Part shown: piece by piece, positions 2,518 through 54,214 of the stretch
Layout: the number at the start of each line of letters is the position of its first letter
Numbering within the stretch: position 1 is the first letter of the stretch
DNA from: a virus
Lineage: Duplodnaviria > Caudoviricetes
DNA: 64,000 nucleotides
Direction: 5' to 3' (one strand)
Virus record (IMG/VR): IMGVR_UViG_2806310659_000001
Coordinates: 1 to 64,000 of that record
Translations under genes and position numbers: made by a program
Notes under the pieces: model-generated
Databases searched by the model: none
Seen by the model: the letters and a program-made list of their open reading frames with translations, nothing else
Told to the model about the DNA's origin: nothing

Positions 2518-2783
2518 CGGAGAGGCTGGGGCTTCAATGCCCCTACCCCCGGTGCTGGTTCGCGGTCAGTTCCGATCCAGTACGTGCGCACCAGGCGCTG
2601 CTTGGTCACCTAATGAGGGGTGACCGCAGACATGCGATCGACTACGACGGCGACGCAAAAGGGGTCGGACCGCAACTTAATGAAATCGTCCGACTCCTAT
2701 CCCCGTATCTCGACCGGTGGGGCCACAGTGAGGTGGGCGACCTAGCGCGCGACATCTACCGCGTCATTAACGGCGACAACTGA
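2514..2783 (+). CDS. Hypothetical protein (C-x4-C/H motif)
   Basis: GTGA coupling; CPYPRC...HLMRGDRRH. Confidence 0.5.
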   Translation: MTERLGLQCPYPRCWFAVSSDPVRAHQALLGHLMRGDRRHAIDYDGDAKGVGPQLNEIVRLLSPYLDRWGHSEVGDLARDIYRVINGDN

Positions 2784-2858
2784 ATAACCACTTCAAGACC
2801 CGAGGGGCCGGATTGGACCCCAGACCCCTCGGGCTGCCCCACGGAAAGGAGCACCATC

Positions 2859-3263
2859 ATGATACGTGCCGTGCTAGCGCTGCTGGCCTTCATGGTCGCC
2901 GGCGTGTTCGAGGCCCCCATCGTCGAGGCCGGCCCCCAGGTCAGCGATCGGCAGTTCTGCCAGGCCGTCGAACAAGAGATGGACAGGCATCAGGAGACCG
3001 CCGGCATCCGGGTCAGTGATTGCACGCTGGTCTCCGACGCCGGCAAGGGCTCGTGCAACTACCTGGCCAGTTCGCAGGACTTCATCAAGACAGTCGAGGG
3101 GTTGATGCAGACCTGGAACTGGACCAAGACCATCGCGGCCATCGTGGCGGTCGACGCGGTGGGGGTGTACTGCCCGGAGAACGGGCGCTACCTCCCCCAA
3201 AGCAAACAAGCCCCGCCGCCTCCCTCGGGGAACGTAGGGATGACGACGGGGCTTGTGGTCTGA
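2859..3263 (+). CDS. Secreted DUF732-like protein
   Basis: Signal peptide; D-x-x-F...GKGSC...AVGVYCPE pattern; RBS AAGGAG. Confidence 0.7.
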   Translation: MIRAVLALLAFMVAGVFEAPIVEAGPQVSDRQFCQAVEQEMDRHQETAGIRVSDCTLVSDAGKGSCNYLASSQDFIKTVEGLMQTWNWTKTIAAIVAVDAVGVYCPENGRYLPQSKQAPPPPSGNVGMTTGLVV

Positions 3264-44801: not shown

Positions 44802-46048
44802 GCGACCTCTTTCAAGTTCAACGGCTCCGCAAGCATCAACTGCACAAAGTGCTGGCGCAGAACTTTGGCCACCAGCGAGAGCGCGCCATCGTCGTAGGCG
44901 TGGGTCAGCTCTCCCGAATAGACGGTGGGCCTGCGCTTCGTGGTACCGCACTGAAATTCACCGATGGTCCAGTCGTACGTGTACTCCCCGGCGTCGGTCA
45001 TGGGCTCGTCGCGACGGACGATAGCCACCTCGCCGATTTGGGTGGAGTTCACCATCAGCGGGAACCAGAGGGCCATTTACCTACCGAACGGAAACGGAAT
45101 CAGGCTCTTGATGCCACTCACCACAGAAGACACGATGGAGGTAACCGATCCGGTGACCGTCTGTCCGAGCGTGGTGATCACGTCATCGGCGCTCGCACTG
45201 ATGTCCTTGCTCAGCGTGTCAATGGTGTGACTGGCGGCCTCGTCGATACGGCCGGAAACCTCATCCGCCACCACATGGGCGAACTTTGCGAGGCGGGCGT
45301 CGAACCACGCATTGAACTTGTCCACTACTCCCCCTTGAGGAATGCCAACACCGGCAGAGGCTTGCGGTCGAACTTCCCGCGTGCCATGCGGGTCGGCGAG
45401 AATCCACCCGTCCGCGGCCGGCGGAATGTGCGACGCCGGCGGCTGCGCAAATGCTGGCCCCACTGGCTGATGAAGCGACGACGGGCGGCACGATTCGGGA
45501 TCGGCGTCCAAACGTCGTCGTCGGAGGGCTCGTATTCGATAAGGGCGTTCAGGCGGTCGCTATCGCTCTTGACTTCGGCGACAGTCACAGGGACTGCCCA
45601 CCGCTCGGTATCCCCGGCTCGACAACCACAATCATCGGAGGGGGCTCGATTGTCACGTCTTGGCCGTATTGTTCGCGGAGTGGCCTGTCCTGGCGGTCCT
45701 TGTATTCCTTCACCTGTTCCCCGGTTTCCTAAGTCCCATGTCCCTCGCCCACGAGCGTTTGGGCTTCCCGGGCTTAGGTTGTCCATACAGATTTGCCATC
45801 GTGGGCGCTTCCGTCATAGTGATGCGCAATTCCCACCGCGGGAAGCGATTCTCCCAGCGGAGGTGGTCGTACTTGCCATTGAGGGGGCGGTACTCCTGCT
45901 CAAGCTCGACGTTGTTGATGACGAATGACGTACCGCGAGCCTTGATAATCGAGGCATAGCCGTGGTGCTCCAGGTTGATGTAATCCCGAAGATCGCCGCA
46001 GGGCATGGCGTCGAGCATTTCCTGACAGGCGCGAGTTACGACGGGCAT
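44720..46048 (-). other. Small hypothetical ORFs (44720-45076, 45077-45325, 45325-45588 Arg-rich, 45710-46048)
   Basis: Packed short ORFs. Confidence 0.55.
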
Positions 46049-46842
46049 CAGACCGGCCGCAGCTCGGTTGTGTAGAGCATGCGCCTACCCTTGTTCCACT
46101 TGCCGCATGGGCAGAGATAACGCGGGTACTTGTACGAGGTTGTGTACTGGTAACCCCTGCGCTGCATCTCCGACTCGGGACGGCTGCACTGCGTGCAACG
46201 GATCTCGCCATCGCCGGCGGTGTCCTCGTACAGGGCGAAGTTCTCACCAATCCACGGCAGATCGTTCTCGAACAAATCCTCGGTGATCTTCACGTCGTGG
46301 ATGTTGTACTGCTTCATGGTCCGCTGTGCGGCGCGGCGGGTGGCCCGATTGCCGTAACGGATGTCGTCCCAGAGATCCGTGCCGCCGTGCTTGACCTTCT
46401 CGTCATGCAAGACGTGCCGGGCCGACCAGTTCAGGGACTGGCTCATCAGGCCGCGGGAGAAGTTCTTCTTGGAGATCTTCTTCAGGTCGATGCTGCGGTA
46501 GGGTGCCGGCCGGCGCCCCCAGAGGCGGCGGAACTCGGCCTGGAACCATTGCAGATCGAACACGTCGCCATTGAACGTAACGACGAAGTCAGCCTCGTCG
46601 AGCAGATCGAACGCCACTTGGAGCATGGCCTCGTACTGTTCGGGGATGACGTGGTAGTTTTCGTCTTCGTCCCAGGCGGCCTTGAAGATCGTCTTATCCT
46701 CGCCGCGCCACTTTGCGGCGAAGCAGAGAATGCGCGTCGGGACCAGGATTCGGTCCTCGTGAATGTAGTTGGAGAAGCGGTCGAAGACGCCGGCGATACC
46801 TCGCTGAGTCTCGATATCGACGGTGAGTATTTTCGCGGTCAA
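46048..46842 (-). CDS. DnaQ/RNase H-like 3'-5' exonuclease with C-terminal Zn ribbon
   Basis: VDIET, FNGDVFD, YNIHDV (Exo I/II/III); CTQC...CPCG. Confidence 0.85.
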   Translation of the reverse strand: MTAKILTVDIETQRGIAGVFDRFSNYIHEDRILVPTRILCFAAKWRGEDKTIFKAAWDEDENYHVIPEQYEAMLQVAFDLLDEADFVVTFNGDVFDLQWFQAEFRRLWGRRPAPYRSIDLKKISKKNFSRGLMSQSLNWSARHVLHDEKVKHGGTDLWDDIRYGNRATRRAAQRTMKQYNIHDVKITEDLFENDLPWIGENFALYEDTAGDGEIRCTQCSRPESEMQRRGYQYTTSYKYPRYLCPCGKWNKGRRMLYTTELRPV

Positions 46843-47873: not shown

Positions 47874-48101
47874 TTAAGAGAAGATCGCTTTCCAGAGGCG
47901 CTTACCGATCGGATCGGCCCACCACGGGAGCGAGTTGAGGAGGTGCAATGCAACCCCTGCAATGACCACCCGGGTCAGGATTGGGTGGGTCAATAGCCAT
48001 TCGTCGACAACGACGGAAAGTAGTTGGTCCTCTTCGCACGAGAACTCGTAGGCGATGATGCCCGCGGCCATGATTGCCCAGGCCTGCTTGCCGGTGATCA
48101 C
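47874..48101 (-). CDS. Small membrane protein
   Basis: AW..MAAGIIAYE...LLS..VD...ALHLLN..P.WADP. Confidence 0.7.
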   Translation of the reverse strand: MITGKQAWAIMAAGIIAYEFSCEEDQLLSVVVDEWLLTHPILTRVVIAGVALHLLNSLPWWADPIGKRLWKAIFS

Positions 48102-48295
48102 GAGACCAGCCAAGGGCGCGGGGCTCCGAAGATCAGCTCCCAAAACTCAGGTTCCGGGAGGGCCGTGTCGTCCTTGCGGGAAGCCATGCATACGCGACGG
48201 TCCCTGGTCTTGTCGGGCCACTGCCGGCGCCAGTGCGAGCCCCCCATCCACGATGGGCGTCCAGCTCCGCAGTCGGGGCAGGTTTCGGCGAACAT
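48098..48295 (-). CDS. Small Cys-containing protein
   Basis: ATG after AGGGAG; CPDCG. Confidence 0.55.
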   Translation of the reverse strand: MFAETCPDCGAGRPSWMGGSHWRRQWPDKTRDRRVCMASRKDDTALPEPEFWELIFGAPRPWLVS

Positions 48296-48315
48296 CGGTA
48301 CTCCCTGGATCGGGG

Positions 48316-48571
48316 GTTGCAAGTTGAGGCCGGCCCGTGGCGCGCGAACAGGGGCCGGCCGGGGCGCTTCGACCCGCGGGGAGCGCCCAGCCTGGAAGTT
48401 GGAAGGAGCCTTTTGGTAACCCGGTGACTCACGCAGGGTGGCGGCCACTCGACAGCCTCTCTGGGGCTGTTCGCCTGCACTCATCCGGGACCGCGGAGTT
48501 AAAGGGATAACCCACCACTAGCCGCGGGGTTCGGCGTTTTGTCAGGCGGAGCCGTTCCAAATCAACCGCCC
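48316..48571 (-). ncRNA. Unassigned structured RNA segment downstream of the mini-tmRNA
   Basis: Nested helices CCGCGG/CCGCGG, CCCGG/CCGGG, GUGCAGG/CCUGCGU, ACAGCC/GGCUGU, GGGCGCU/AGCGCCC, GGCCGGCCC/GGGCCGGCC; no credible ORF. Confidence 0.5.
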
Positions 48572-48572
48572 G

Positions 48573-48654
48573 TGGAGATGTTCGGTGCTGCCCCGAAGTC
48601 TTGCCTGGTGCCGCGTGCGGCTTTCGTCAGACAATCGAACCTGGTCGCATCCCC
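48573..48654 (-). ncRNA. Mini-tmRNA: tRNA-like domain only
   Basis: GGGGAUG/CAUCUCC-A acceptor stem (G3-U70, A73); 13-nt stemless D-loop ending UUCGA; helix UUGUCUG/CAGGCAA; GAC linker; T-arm UUCGG-GGCAGCA-CCGAA. Confidence 0.82.
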
Positions 48655-48665
48655 TAGTTTGGAAC

Positions 48666-49436
48666 CGGGCTGAGAATACACCCGTCCACAGTGACCTTTA
48701 CCGGATTATTGGTTCCCGGCTTTTCCACGTCATTCCTGAACGTAGTCACCACGCCCGGTCGGTTACGCCGACCACTCGTTACACCGAAAGCTACTCCGCG
48801 ACGTTTGTTTCACACTGGATTCGCGGGTCCAGCGCTGCACTACTTGTCTACGAACCACCGTCGCCTTGCGGGCTCGTGATGGCCCTGGTTCCGTAACGGC
48901 CAGGGATTAGAGGCGCTTTTGCTCCTCGGCGGGGGAAGAACTTTGGCTTGTTTCTGTTCTCAAAACAGGAAATGGTGAAATATAAGCAATTTCGTTCTAA
49001 CTAGAGACGTGCTTCCCCATGAAGGTCCGCACCCTTTTGAGGTACAGAATGCTTCACGCCTCTCGTGCTTCAGGCTGGCGACCTGTTTCGCACTCTACTC
49101 AGCCGTTCCCGAGCCGTCGCCCGTTACTAAGCGTTTTCATGGAACCCGCCCTTGCCCGCCAAGGCTTGGACTGAGACCCCCTCCGCACCACAAGGAGCTT
49201 GACCGATAGCCGTTTCTTCCCGCACGTACGGGTTGGTGGTCCCACTGGTTCACAGCCCTGGACCCTGGCGTATCTCGCCCCCTGGCAGCCCCCGAAGGAA
49301 CTGCTCAAGGATTGGATTGCATGGGGTACCCTCTCGGGCGGCAAGGTTGTCAGCCTCGCCTTTCAGCATCTTGCGATGCCTTATCCGCCATGCCGGAAAT
49401 GTGCCCGTTCAGTCGGTGGGCTAACCGATGCAATCC
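48666..49436 (-). ncRNA. GOLLD-like large non-coding RNA
   Basis: ~770 nt dense in GNRA/UUCG hairpins; motifs I recall from GOLLD (CUCAAAAGG, GUAACGAGUGG, terminal GUGUAUUCUCAGC); GGGGAAG/CUUCCCC long-range pairing. Confidence 0.8.
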
Positions 49437-49469
49437 TCACTATATGAACCGAAATCCTCGAATAGTGAA
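49437..49469 (-). promoter_or_regulatory. Putative promoter of the ncRNA cluster with overlapping inverted repeat
   Basis: TTCACT, 19 nt, TATAGT on the minus strand; inverted repeat TCACTAT (49437-49443) / ATAGTGA (49462-49468). Confidence 0.5.
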
Positions 49470-49633
49470 CATTGCATACGTTTACAGCTCGTTTGAGGCC
49501 TGTCCCTGCCTCACCCCGTGAGCCACGCGGGGGCCGTCCGTTCTGGACACCCTTCAGGACAATCAGGTGCTCTCTCGGTCACGGCAACCGCCACGTTTTC
49601 TCTGCGCAACGGCGAAACGTGGAAACCGGGTCT

Positions 49634-50002
49634 TTAGGTCTGCATCAGTTCGGTGAGCGATTCCCGCTCGCGCCTGACGCGCTCATACTCTTGCTCAACA
49701 TCCCTCGGCAGTGTTGGCCCCTGCGCGATGACGGGACGGCCCGACCAGACGAGGTTGTCTTTGTGGGGGTCCTTGCCGGCGCGGAACTTGACACGGTATC
49801 CGCGGCACATGGGATGGCCGTAGTAGGCGCGGGCCACAAGGTCGTGGACCATGCAGGTGGATTTACCGATGTCGACCTGGAGTGAGCCATTGGCAGCACG
49901 GCGCAGTTTCTTGAACCGGCGCCGGCGCTCGTCCCATATCCGGCCGTCTGGCGTTGCCCGGTAGCCGGCATAGCCGGGGATGGCGGCTAACTGCTCATCC
50001 AT
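49634..50002 (-). CDS. NUMOD4/HNH-like protein, probably degenerate
   Basis: IPGYAGY.AT.DGRI...VHDLVARAY.G...DNLVW. Confidence 0.65.
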   Translation of the reverse strand: MDEQLAAIPGYAGYRATPDGRIWDERRRRFKKLRRAANGSLQVDIGKSTCMVHDLVARAYYGHPMCRGYRVKFRAGKDPHKDNLVWSGRPVIAQGPTLPRDVEQEYERVRRERESLTELMQT

Positions 50003-51004: not shown

Positions 51005-51273
51005 GCCGCCAACACCCGCTGAAACAGCTCGATTACCTCATCCTCGGTGCGGTTGGGCTCACGCTCCCATTCCAGGACGGGCTCACCCAGCTCGTCGGAC
51101 AGGACGTTGAGGGCCTCGATATAGCCGTCGAACGCCTCCAGATTGGTCCATGCCAGCGTGGTCTCAGTGAGGGAGTCGTGGATGCACCACCCCACAGCGT
51201 AGGGGTCGACGATCCACGGCGGGCTCCAGCCGTCCTCCAGAAGGAGCTGGAGCGCCAACCTAACCGATCTCAT
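51001..51273 (-). CDS. Hypothetical protein
   Basis: Coupled ORF; W...P.RT.DEVIELF. Confidence 0.55.
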   Translation of the reverse strand: MRSVRLALQLLLEDGWSPPWIVDPYAVGWCIHDSLTETTLAWTNLEAFDGYIEALNVLSDELGEPVLEWEREPNRTEDEVIELFQRVLAA

Positions 51274-51955
51274 CGACGAATCCGATCTCCAGCGCCTCCG
51301 TGGCGCTCAGCCACCAATCCTTACGGGTCCAGCGCGTCCGGAACTCGTCGGCGGTGATCCTGCCGCCCGAGCGGGCCACGAAGATGTCGGCCACGCCGGC
51401 GCGGACCATCTGAATCCACTCCAGAGTGTCCTCGATCTCCCCTACCTTGCCGCGGGCGCCAGAGGCCGGCTCGTGCACGAGAAGATGGGCATGGCGGCCG
51501 ATCACGCGCCAATCGGCGGCCTGGAGCAGGATCGCGGCCATGCTGGCGGCGTAACCCCGAACCGTCATGGTAACGAAGTGGCTACCACCGCCGCGGGTCG
51601 AGTAGTTGTGGATCTCGTCGAACAAGTGCATCCCCTCCACCGTCGAACCGCCCGGGGAGTTGATGGTGATGTTCATCGGGCAGAACGGGTGCAGGCGGTC
51701 CCAAGCCTGGAGAGTGGTCAGGGCCTGGTAGACGTTGTCGATCCTCACCTCCCCGTAGAAGAGGTGATGGAATTGCAGGTAGTCCTGCGTCGTGGCCAGA
51801 TCCTCGGCGCGGCGACGCTCCGCCAAATAGATCTCCCGGATATCGGCGTCAGCCCTCTTCTCGCGGAGCTGCTCCCGGTAGAGGTCGGCCTCGGCCTCCA
51901 GATTGGCGATCAGCGCGGCCTCGTGGGCGGGGCTGACGGCGAGCTTGTCGTTCAC
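51260..51955 (-). CDS. ClpP-like protease
   Basis: INSPGG, AASMA (Ser), LVHEP (His), DWWLSATEALEIGFVDEI. Confidence 0.9.
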   Translation of the reverse strand: MNDKLAVSPAHEAALIANLEAEADLYREQLREKRADADIREIYLAERRRAEDLATTQDYLQFHHLFYGEVRIDNVYQALTTLQAWDRLHPFCPMNITINSPGGSTVEGMHLFDEIHNYSTRGGGSHFVTMTVRGYAASMAAILLQAADWRVIGRHAHLLVHEPASGARGKVGEIEDTLEWIQMVRAGVADIFVARSGGRITADEFRTRWTRKDWWLSATEALEIGFVDEIG

Positions 51956-52185
51956 TGGTCTCCTAGCAGTTCGAGAATCTTGTTCGCGAGTTCACGGGCG
52001 TCCTCGTCGAGAAGCGTGAACAACGCCTCGTCACCGGCGGGGCCGGCCTGGCGGATACGGGTCACGACAACGTCCGAGTTGAGCAATTCGACATATGGAC
52101 TACCGCCGGGGAAAAACGCCCTTGCATCGACGTGCTCGACCGTGCAGCGGCCGAAGTCGTAGCGAGTGCTCGTGGTGGCGCTCAT
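51952..52185 (-). CDS. Hypothetical protein
   Basis: ATG after GGAG; coupled. Confidence 0.5.
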   Translation of the reverse strand: MSATTSTRYDFGRCTVEHVDARAFFPGGSPYVELLNSDVVVTRIRQAGPAGDEALFTLLDEDARELANKILELLGDQ

Positions 52186-52895
52186 GCTGCACTCTCCTGA
52201 AGGGCGGTTACATCTGCGAGGGTCAGACCGGTTTCGTATTTCCATTGGCGGTACTCGCGCAACTCCGCCGCCATCTTTCGTCGGTCCATCGTTACATGAC
52301 ACTTCCTACACATCGGCATGTAGAACTCGGGATAGAGCGAATACCGCATTAGTGAGCCAGAGCCCGACCCCTTACCAGGCCCCAATATCTCGGCCGGATC
52401 AGTCCCGTCATAAGCCCAGTCCTTAGCGTTTTCCCCGCACTCAATGCACCGGTAGCGGCTTGCAGGTCCCCATAATGTCCGAACCCTGACGTGCGCGGCG
52501 GTGAAGTCGCAAGGACTGGCCAGCGTATTGCGAATGGGCGCGTCAACGGAAAGCGACGTATCTCCGCGTGCGCGAGACCAATGCAATCGGCAATATCCGT
52601 GCGCCTTATGCTTTCGATCGCACCCCTCGATCCGGCATCCGCGATCAGGATCAAAGATCCTAAGCGGGCCGTCGATATCACACCCCTGGCGGAAGCGTTC
52701 GTAGTGGCCACGGCAGTAGCCCCTGACCGTGGACAGGCGGTCACACCCCTTGGCTGTGCACAGCTCGGGATAGTCGGGAACGCGATGTCGCTGGTTCATA
52801 TCAGCTCCGCGGCGCGCCCGCTGGTAATGAGCACTGCAATAGCCGAGCGATCGGACCTTGCGGTCGCACCAGTCCACTTTACAGATACTTGTCAC
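52182..52895 (-). CDS. Zn-finger-repeat HNH-like protein
   Basis: Three C-x4-C-x9-C-x2-H repeats, then CIECG...MCRKCH. Confidence 0.7.
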   Translation of the reverse strand: MTSICKVDWCDRKVRSLGYCSAHYQRARRGADMNQRHRVPDYPELCTAKGCDRLSTVRGYCRGHYERFRQGCDIDGPLRIFDPDRGCRIEGCDRKHKAHGYCRLHWSRARGDTSLSVDAPIRNTLASPCDFTAAHVRVRTLWGPASRYRCIECGENAKDWAYDGTDPAEILGPGKGSGSGSLMRYSLYPEFYMPMCRKCHVTMDRRKMAAELREYRQWKYETGLTLADVTALQESAA

Positions 52896-54214
52896 GCGAC
52901 CGATTCCATGTCCAGCTCGCCCCTGTCGAGCAGCTTCGTTTCGTGTTCGAGGAATACTTGTGACTTGGCCTTTAGCAAGACCGGAACCAGGCCCTCCTGA
53001 CGAATTACCACTCCCTCGTCGACCGTCTTGGGGTCGGATAGGGGAAGCACATCAGGATTGACCTCACCGTACAACTCGGCATAACTCCGGTCCATGAACG
53101 AGTCGACAATGTCGTCCGTGGTGTCACCGGTGGTGTCGTATTCCGGATCGAAGTCATGGATGAAACGGAACAATTCCGGTGTCCACTTCAGCCCGCGCTC
53201 CTGGCAAAACTGCTTAACGCCATCCCACGAGAGGTCGCTTAGGTGACCCTGTCGGTTGATGTGAGCGACGCGATAAACGTATAGTTCCGCTTCGTTCCGA
53301 GCCAAGTGATACGTGTAACCCCTTTGAAGAGGAGCACCGTCAGGCGTCCAGCCGATAAGCTCGCCATAGACAATGAATCCTTCCGGGATTAGGTTGGCAA
53401 CCCTCTTGCCGTATTCGGTCCAGAGGTCGAATTTGTAGAAATGCTCCTGGTTCGGGTTGTTCGGGTCCTTGATAACCTTTCGTGAGCCGAAAACCACGTC
53501 GTACTCCCACTCGGGGATGTTCACGCCGAGGCGCTTGAGCAGCTTCTCATACCACTTCAACTGGCGAAGGACCGGAACCCTCCCGCCACGCCAGGATGTC
53601 CCGTGGAGCTTCTGCGTGATGACCACTTCCCGGCCGGCGCGCAAGACGTGCCTGGAACGGAAGTAACTGTCAGTTTCGAGGTGCTCGGGAAAGACTTTCT
53701 TGTCCACGCGCTTAAACGCCCGCTCCACCTTCGACCTGGCGGGCTGGCCGGCCTTGCGGGGCAGCTCGTACTTCTTGCAGATCTCGTGGTCGCCGATCTT
53801 GTCGAACAGCACCACCGGGTGGCTTACGTCGGCCAGCTCGGCACGCAGCTTGTCGATGTCCAGGCCGGTGTAGGCCAGGGACTCCAGCGGCATGAGGAGT
53901 GCGTTGGAGCGGTGCCCGCGGAGTTTCAGCGCCTTGATGCGGCGGTTGTCCTCCAGGTAACCCGTCTCGCCCTCGTCCTTGTTCAGGTCGGCATGGCGGA
54001 ACAGGTTGTTCTGGTGGGCGTAGTCGTCGCTCAGTTGCGTTTCCGCGGTGAACAGCACGCGGAGTTCCCCGGCCTCAATCCCCCGCTGTGTGAGGGCCTG
54101 GTGACCGAGAATGGGGATGCCGACAAGGTTGTCCAGCCCGGGCAGGTCCACCGGGGCGGGAACACGGACGATGGTGGCCGCGTAGTTGACGTTGGCCGGC
54201 TGGTCGAATTTCAT
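52892..54214 (-). CDS. RNA ligase (Rnl2-like)
   Basis: TQKLHGTS motif I, VYGEL, EGVVIR, LKAKS; N-terminal LKLRGHRS. Confidence 0.85.
   Translation of the reverse strand: MKFDQPANVNYAATIVRVPAPVDLPGLDNLVGIPILGHQALTQRGIEAGELRVLFTAETQLSDDYAHQNNLFRHADLNKDEGETGYLEDNRRIKALKLRGHRSNALLMPLESLAYTGLDIDKLRAELADVSHPVVLFDKIGDHEICKKYELPRKAGQPARSKVERAFKRVDKKVFPEHLETDSYFRSRHVLRAGREVVITQKLHGTSWRGGRVPVLRQLKWYEKLLKRLGVNIPEWEYDVVFGSRKVIKDPNNPNQEHFYKFDLWTEYGKRVANLIPEGFIVYGELIGWTPDGAPLQRGYTYHLARNEAELYVYRVAHINRQGHLSDLSWDGVKQFCQERGLKWTPELFRFIHDFDPEYDTTGDTTDDIVDSFMDRSYAELYGEVNPDVLPLSDPKTVDEGVVIRQEGLVPVLLKAKSQVFLEHETKLLDRGELDMESVA

Follow-up and report, generated by a model that had tools for sequence, protein, structure and literature searches.

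What takes the place of a tRNA downstream of a GOLLD RNA when the phage carries no tRNA? The question is raised by a non-coding gap of about 1.3 kb (positions 48296-49633) in a 64,000-nucleotide (nt) stretch of viral DNA (IMG/VR record IMGVR_UViG_2806310659_000001), hereafter the window, which is the first 64 kb of the 77,141-bp contig C44 from a mycobacterial-type genome of 5.0 Mb in 94 contigs. By its sequence, C44 is phage-derived; it has portal, tail, primase, and other protein homologues in common with the mycobacteriophage DS6A, and ARAGORN finds no tRNA or transfer-messenger RNA (tmRNA) on the whole 77-kb contig. All genes around the locus are encoded on the minus strand, and the gap extends from the stop of an HNH-like gene (49634) to the start of a 65-amino-acid (aa) open reading frame (ORF; 48295). 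Codon-phase GC asymmetry is present in the flanks and absent from the gap, which bears out the statement of an initial annotation that there is no credible ORF here. Within the gap, a GOLLD RNA is followed after 12 nt by an 82-nt element that we identify as a tag-less mini-tmRNA, a tmRNA homologue that consists of the tRNA-like domain (TLD) only. In relatives, this position, 8-14 nt after GOLLD, belongs to a true tRNA.

The upstream partner (48667..49402, minus strand) is, by model and homology, a GOLLD RNA. At 48667-49064(-), Rfam model RF02032 is matched over its full length (positions 1-416 of 416) with 215.6 bits, where the gathering score is 150. This model describes only the conserved 3' domain of GOLLD (48667-49064 in the window), and the 5' domain reaches to about 49394-49402. 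In blastn, 49402..48668 is covered by 32 cluster M-type Mycobacterium phage records (the Bongo, PegLeg, Rey, and prophi86-1 group) at 68-72% identity, and the similarity to phage records ends exactly at the GOLLD 3' end. The closest GOLLD relative found, the provirus G425, is 75-78% identical across 49394..48668. Because the 5' homology to phage GOLLDs runs to 49394-49402, the RNA is placed at about 736 nt, in keeping with the 700-800 nt expected of a GOLLD with its variable 5' domain; together with the Rfam score, this homology upholds what had been annotated as a GOLLD-like RNA. Contigs from four sequencing runs also match parts of GOLLD at 80% likeness: an X2 contig fits 48655-48879 and an X6 contig fits 48653-48699, both diverging from the window beyond. 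No contig from these runs falls on 48529-48622 at that likeness, which does not count as absence.

The element that follows (48573..48654, minus strand) runs from G48654 to A48573. Its acceptor stem is 7 bp long and includes G3:U70; the 13-nt D loop is stemless, and the 7-bp P2 helix encloses a conserved internal loop with a 4-bp capping hairpin. A 5-bp T stem carries a variant 7-nt T loop, and the discriminator is A. Between the two P2 strands lie just a 20-nt internal loop and the hairpin; there is no mRNA-like domain, tag frame, or pseudoknot. P2 and the hairpin stand in place of the anticodon arm, and the domain order is that of tRNA and tmRNA, unpermuted. As judged from this layout, a short conserved hairpin replaces the pseudoknots and tag reading frame of tmRNA.

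Standard tools do not recognize this element. ARAGORN makes no call at 48573-48654 and Rfam gives no tRNA match there; the Rfam tmRNA model (RF00023) has no match in the window at its gathering threshold, nor at E-values up to 10 in 48100-49700. The two checks that the initial annotation put forward for its mini-tmRNA, ARAGORN and the Rfam tmRNA model, thus both fail to detect it, and the identification needed comparative work for that reason. Folding alone is likewise uninformative: the minimum-energy fold is cloverleaf-like, with an energy z of -1.14 that is no better than shuffled sequences (+0.53 when a flanking clamp, described below, is included). Comparison with relatives sustains the mini-tmRNA. 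A covariance model built from ten relatives with the window left out (R2) scores the element at 93.3 bits (E-value 4e-20), with 13.8 bits for the next match in the 64 kb. An ungapped alignment of the 3' 34 nt with the 3' terminus of a full-length phage tmRNA (L039) agrees at 26 of 34 positions, a score that none of 2000 shuffles reaches; the 5' 23 nt show a weaker likeness to phage tmRNA 5' ends (17 of 2000 shuffles for Bongo). Relative to its nearest relative (L078, 81.7% identity), 12 of the 15 differences make up six compensatory pair changes.

Several other identities were tried and rejected. Single features of the element do recur in the window's own genome (10 Mb counting both strands), where the tmRNA-like 5' motif occurs 11 times and the acceptor-plus-T-hairpin geometry 1052 times; chance resemblance is ruled out by the 93.3 bits of the family model. 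A tmRNA fragment of the attP type is ruled out by the presence of both ends and a closed P2 helix.

By homology, the element is a TLD-only tmRNA that belongs to the same family as an entry listed as "Mycobacterium phage DS6A (TLD only)" by Hudson, Lau & Williams 2014 (PMC4131195) and known from the tmRNA Website. We located the DS6A element at JN698994 28478-28557 (L062) with an acceptor-plus-T-arm scan. The two RNAs are alike in architecture, length (82 nt in the window and 80 nt in DS6A), G3:U70, discriminator A, and a D loop ending in UCGA, and their internal loops and capping hairpins are near-identical, one compensatory pair apart. They differ in that overall identity is 57%, the window copy has a variant T loop and an 8-bp clamp, and the DS6A copy does not lie beside GOLLD.

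Other members were recovered in several ways. A 20-base core pattern, the part shared by the window and DS6A, retrieved DS6A again, three new members, and one chance match from IMG/VR. Extending the core with the D-loop end gave 11 matches in metagenome contigs, all true members, and two in species-representative genomes, both in coding DNA and not TLDs; a first IMG/VR pattern drawn from the 5' motif gave six matches, all within coding DNA. A blastn search with one member returned DS6A and the Streptomyces phages LuckySocke, GiJojo, BRock, and pSt2308, in which the elements are unannotated and lie inside tRNA arrays near RNA ligase genes (LuckySocke, L083:3001-3078; BRock, L084:2991-3068). The GenBank records of DS6A, LuckySocke, and BRock carry no annotation for the element, and in GiJojo the site falls under a "hypothetical protein". 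In total, covariance model R1 finds 18 full-length elements in 39 sources (the window and 17 relatives), with DS6A at 88.3 bits; among 150 genomes of the genus, with 30 candidates scored per genome, it finds the element in the window's own genome only.

The family is conserved in structure as well as in sequence. When 11 members are aligned with MAFFT, pairing holds in 99.2% of cells, and both sides have changed in 14 of 23 pairs; none of 500 shuffles equals the alignment on any of five measures, and pairing falls to 30-49% in slid controls. In a model-based alignment of 19 distinct rows, 97.6% are paired, and the T, P2, and acceptor stems all covary. G3:U70 is present in 19 of 19 rows, and all members keep the discriminator A and the D-loop UCGA. 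The discriminator is followed by C in 17 of 17 members, and the host tmRNA gene is likewise without a full CCA. Although the core motif was used to retrieve members, the conservation of the stems is independent of that retrieval. The Rfam tmRNA model places 8 of the 18 elements above its cut-off (57-68 bits); it misses DS6A, four others, and all five members with a variant T loop (the window, L066, L072, L077, and L078). Members of this subgroup agree with the canonical T loop at the third loop base (C) alone and lack T54, psi55, and A58. Since the T stems covary within the subgroup, the variant loop is a maintained state and not decay.

The position of the element becomes clear when the GOLLD loci of relatives are lined up. 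The C/A-rich spacer between GOLLD and the element (48655..48666, minus strand) is 12 nt from the Rfam GOLLD end; the initial annotation was right about the close adjacency and gave a figure of 11 nt. A tRNA-Arg starts 10 nt past the Rfam GOLLD end in Bongo, a tRNA-Phe 8 nt past it in prophi86-1, and a tRNA-Trp 8 nt past it in a genome of the same genus (G419), each preceded by a spacer alike in length and composition. Of 36 matches to a GOLLD pattern in IMG/VR, nhmmer confirmed 11 as GOLLD, and nine of these have an ARAGORN tRNA 9-14 nt past the terminal hairpin motif. Of the other two, L030 has a Bongo-like sequence there without a call, and L035 (the G425 provirus) has none. As seven of the 11 nearly duplicate the prophi86-1 type, the tRNA-after-GOLLD arrangement represents about five independent lineages. 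No tRNA-like or TLD-like fold was found downstream of GOLLD in G425 and G269, and therefore GOLLD does not require such an element; the G425 downstream stretch gives no significant alignment with that of the window.

The location of GOLLD within mycobacterial tRNA clusters with an HNH endonuclease has already been published (Behra et al. 2019, PMC6582537). The window locus resembles these cluster M and mycobacterial loci in its full 3'-domain match, homologous 5' domain, phage context, and an HNH gene just upstream, as in that report. It differs in that the contig has no tRNA of any kind and the slot after GOLLD holds the mini-tmRNA. The linker within GOLLD (about 48950-48999) is also without an embedded tRNA, being 50 nt long and A/U-rich, unlike those of prophi86-1, G419, and G425. 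The relatives' linkers embed a tRNA-Gln(ttg) in G425 and prophi86-1 and a "tRNA-His(atg)" in G419 (linker tRNA or tRNA-like genes at 8928-8999 of L058, which is G425, and at L001:2915-2988 and L007:1737-1810).

A full-length tmRNA is a further part of cluster M-type arrays, lying 0.8-1.7 kb upstream of GOLLD. The tmRNAs of Bongo, prophi86-1, and L039 share with the window element a homologous 5' end (acceptor strand and D-loop motif), the 3' 34 nt, and membership of the same RNA-gene cluster as GOLLD; they differ in having pseudoknots and a tag frame (e.g., a tag ending in YALAA) and in lying upstream of GOLLD, whereas the window element is without some 280 nt of interior. Two side observations concern these tmRNAs. 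In cluster M-type phages, their genes are immediately followed by an orphan T-arm-like hairpin, whose T loop is canonical but for which there is no matching acceptor strand (L001:1114-1150 and L002:2031-2070; also in L028 and L039); this hairpin may be the remnant of a tRNA 3' half. In L043, a prophi86-type IMG/VR provirus, ARAGORN finds no tmRNA in the 740-nt gap (721-1457) where close relatives have one, and model R1 gives only a weak 50-nt match at 1118-1167; this tmRNA may be disrupted or divergent.

Is the pairing of GOLLD with a mini-tmRNA found elsewhere? The initial annotation made its proposal depend on conservation of the linkage in related phages, and our survey did not find it: GOLLD is present at none of the 17 other TLD-only loci (many of them short contigs of 1.1-5 kb), and a TLD-only element is present at none of 15 other GOLLD loci, nor in the whole G425 provirus at an E-value of 0.01, with the weak partial match in L043 as the exception. 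Among the 17 other TLD-only loci, five include tRNAs in the examined stretch, so the family behaves like a passenger of tRNA arrays. The limited collection of literature searched, as far as its texts extend, holds no account of GOLLD adjoining a TLD-only tmRNA or of a wider TLD-only family; in the BRock genome paper, tmRNA appears solely in a reference. The annotation had likewise known of no description. This holds for the combination with GOLLD, while SmpB binding or interference with ribosome rescue has a published precedent in the DS6A-type molecule (PMC4131195).

How might such a pair of RNAs work? We favor as probable a reading in which GOLLD and the tag-less mini-tmRNA that follows after 12 nt form an RNA pair processed by RNase P, with the mini-tmRNA competing for SmpB. 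Both RNAs would be read from one minus-strand transcript, as suggested by their common strand, the 12-nt gap, and the lack of a terminator between them. Host RNase P would cut 5' of G48654, as at the tRNA after GOLLD in relatives, setting the GOLLD 3' end and freeing the mini-tmRNA, which would then undergo 3' trimming and CCA completion. The mature RNA would be recognized by alanyl-tRNA synthetase (through G3:U70 and A73) and by host SmpB. Having no tag frame, it could not complete trans-translation and would thus compete with the host tmRNA for SmpB, dampening or diverting ribosome rescue during phage development. The host tmRNA, with the tag ADSHQRDYALAA, of a kind typical of mycobacteria, adjoins smpB on contig C3, and neither gene is on the phage contig. 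A molecule similar to the DS6A TLD is stated to inhibit tmRNA strongly, perhaps by titrating SmpB (Hudson et al. 2014, PMC4131195), and the tmRNA database paper of 2025 repeats the statement for endogenous tmRNA in E. coli (PMC11915505).

Several points weigh against this reading. The SmpB competition step is drawn from citing statements about a similar molecule in E. coli (Mao et al. 2009, as cited), and transcription and processing of the locus are proposed here from sequence features. The juxtaposition of GOLLD and mini-tmRNA is so far unique to the window. Conservation of the core is partly by construction, since the motif used to retrieve members came from the core of the window element and that of DS6A, and the window copy escapes the Rfam tmRNA model even at an E-value of 10. 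With its non-canonical T loop, the window copy may not be recognized at the elbow by RNase P, SmpB, or modification enzymes in the way that DS6A-type elements are. Finally, the flanks of the element can form a clamp between a 5' arm inside the spacer (48658..48665) and a 3' arm 11 nt after the discriminator base (48554..48561), both on the minus strand. The arms are exact 8-nt complements, as had been annotated, and a run that long occurs in 1 of 300 shuffles. As a family feature the clamp did not stand, with no comparable leader/trailer run in the 16 other members compared (the best being 6 bp in L078, matched by 30 of 300 shuffles). In the window, pairing of the arms would tie up the RNase P leader in a helix, a possible hindrance to cleavage.

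The position in the tRNA slot (12 nt, against 8-14 nt in relatives), the zero tRNAs on the contig, and the variant T loop, which suggests relaxed tRNA-like function, would all suit a simpler account, in which the mini-tmRNA is only a processing handle, kept mainly as a tRNA surrogate for the GOLLD 3' end in a phage that has lost its tRNA array, and the released 82-nt RNA has no role. We consider this unlikely. All 17 other family loci are without GOLLD, some of them with their own terminator, so selection acts on the TLD-only RNA itself; the G425 and G269 loci do without a downstream tRNA-like element; and G3:U70 and the capping hairpin are invariant though not needed for RNase P. The same non-canonical T loop, along with a fold energy no better than that of shuffles, might instead mark what is left, without function, of a tmRNA or tRNA array that the phage lineage has lost, given that cluster M-type relatives have a full tmRNA and at least 17 tRNAs around GOLLD and the contig has none. 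Decay of this kind is highly improbable with every helix intact, 12 of the 15 differences from L078 compensatory, and the variant T loop common to five members with covarying T stems; moreover, the occurrence of the capping hairpin in DS6A and Streptomyces phages as well points to an old, maintained lineage and not a recent local deletion.

If the clamp buries the RNase P site, the mini-tmRNA would instead stay on the GOLLD 3' end, and the GOLLD multimer would display it as a multivalent trap or decoy for SmpB or stalled ribosomes. The clamp helix is specific to the window, is rare in shuffles, and co-exists with the cloverleaf in the centroid fold. GOLLD is presented as a 14-mer cage with tRNAs in the linker, ribosome binding in pull-downs, and cages drawn with exposed, covalently linked tRNAs (Kretsch et al., bioRxiv 10.1101/2024.12.08.627333), and the linked tRNAs and ribosome binding reported in this preprint would fit such a display. 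It is nonetheless very unlikely: only one locus is concerned, other family members do not conserve the clamp, and a lone sequence may have an 8-bp match by chance. In a weaker version, GOLLD loci would generally use a downstream tRNA-like fold as an obligatory partner. A further alternative concerns the 277 nt downstream of the element (48296..48572, minus strand), which the initial annotation treated as an unknown RNA, the last of three abutting structured modules in one operon. That these constitute a separate structured RNA is decidedly unlikely. The stretch is non-coding by codon-phase GC, and contigs from two soil runs are similar to 48406-48490 (X2 over 85 nt, with 4 changes and 5 gaps; X7 over 31 nt, with 1 change), with flanks that are unlike on both sides. 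Its fold energy (z -0.11) is unremarkable, it matches no Rfam family, and no homologue was found in phages, in IMG/VR, in 400 genomes of the genus apart from a 57-nt piece in G400, or beside 16 family members. GOLLD and the mini-tmRNA stand as modules by homology, with no support from the TLD fold energy (z -1.14), and the third is unsupported.

In the 277 nt, a single plus-strand match to PtaRNA1 lies below threshold (24 bits against 47) and was judged an artefact of a GC-rich hairpin; such a hairpin, without a U tract, lies at the end of the stretch (48328-48360). The downstream 385 nt match one phage record over 36 nt (E-value 0.1) and, among 61 relatives, only the window's own genome and one 25-nt piece elsewhere. 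In the 400 genus genomes, five match including the window's own, and three of the other four match in the GOLLD part only, G400 being the one with a piece of the downstream stretch. A 20-mer from the third module has no match in IMG/VR. The region was also considered as a decayed full-length tmRNA and rejected, as alignments of 48296-48666 to host and phage tmRNAs are no better than those of shuffles; the 277 nt show no similarity to tmRNA interiors.

The genes around the gap are of several kinds, all on the minus strand. Immediately upstream, the HNH-endonuclease-like gene (49634..50002; 122 aa) matches PHROG phrog_959 (HNH endonuclease; E-value 1.8e-12); its product has no Pfam match and no similarity to the Bongo HNH, and an IMG/VR search anchored on it returned no match. 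Further upstream are a ClpP-family protease (51260-51955; PF00574, E-value 3e-23), a second HNH-like ORF (52182-52895), and an RNA ligase (52892-54214; PF09414, E-value 9e-12). tmRNA tags direct proteins to Clp proteases, hence the interest of the adjoining ClpP-family gene. The RNA ligase region is common to C44 and the IMG/VR provirus G425, and RNA ligase genes also occur near the TLD-only elements of LuckySocke and BRock, while DS6A has an RtcB-like ligase. A promoter for the locus is less clear. The initial annotation described one upstream promoter-like element; read by eye, there are just a -10-like hexamer (49439-49444) and a poor -35-like hexamer (49464-49469) 19 nt apart on the minus strand, which a consensus scan does not pick up and which are not conserved in G425, the nearest GOLLD relative.

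Downstream of the gap, the 65-aa ORF (48098..48295) has a Shine-Dalgarno-like GGGAG 6 nt upstream and no Pfam or PHROG match. It is accompanied by a DUF7427 ORF (47874-48143), an exonuclease-like ORF (46048-46842), and a DUF6378 ORF. Homologues of two of these genes also lie near other family members: DUF7427 within about 0.3 kb of the element in L075 (2293-2505 / 2574-3200 region) and L068 (1919-2110), and the exonuclease-like ORF within about 1.3 kb in L075 (same region) and L080 (1341-2018). They may represent a conserved neighborhood or a partner. Separately, a near-perfect 19-nt palindrome lies at most 30 nt from the TLD-only gene, upstream in the metagenome contigs L072, L076, and L081 and downstream in a fourth, L080, and may be an operator or terminator.

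Comparable arrangements are known from other systems. In MALAT1/mascRNA, a long non-coding RNA could gain its 3' end through RNase P acting at the tRNA-like fold that immediately follows it; that system is eukaryotic and without sequence relation to this one, and processing at the window locus is a proposal. Jakobid mitochondria have a tmRNA without a coding sequence (CDS). Such CDS-less tmRNAs of jakobid mitochondria and some plastids are organellar, of independent origin, and thought to aid rescue with imported SmpB, unlike a viral competitor. Reduction of a tmRNA to the tRNA-like domain is described in PMC11915505. YrlA has a tRNA-like domain closed off by a terminal stem in which the 5' and 3' flanks pair; the M. 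smegmatis YrlA is cut by RNase P, and YrlA is reported in mycobacteriophages as well (Chen et al. 2014, PMC4201824). YrlA differs from the window element in being circularly permuted relative to tRNA and in lying beside a Ro60/TROVE gene. A Y RNA was ruled out here, as the whole genome has no TROVE gene (PF05731) and there is no Rfam Y-RNA match.

In summary, the components of this locus are of known kinds, and the new details are their placement side by side, the subgroup with a variant T loop, and how large the family is. A phage tag-less tmRNA has so far been known from a single listed example, DS6A. What looked like an oddity of that phage is now a conserved, covarying family with at least 18 members in Mycobacterium and Streptomyces phages and metagenome contigs, most of them unannotated, and standard tmRNA and tRNA finders miss part of it. 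GOLLD has been without an assigned function since 2009 and is now known as a large RNA cage; the window locus sets a tag-less tmRNA beside it. If the mini-tmRNA does remain tethered to that cage, the function of GOLLD would be tied to ribosome rescue.

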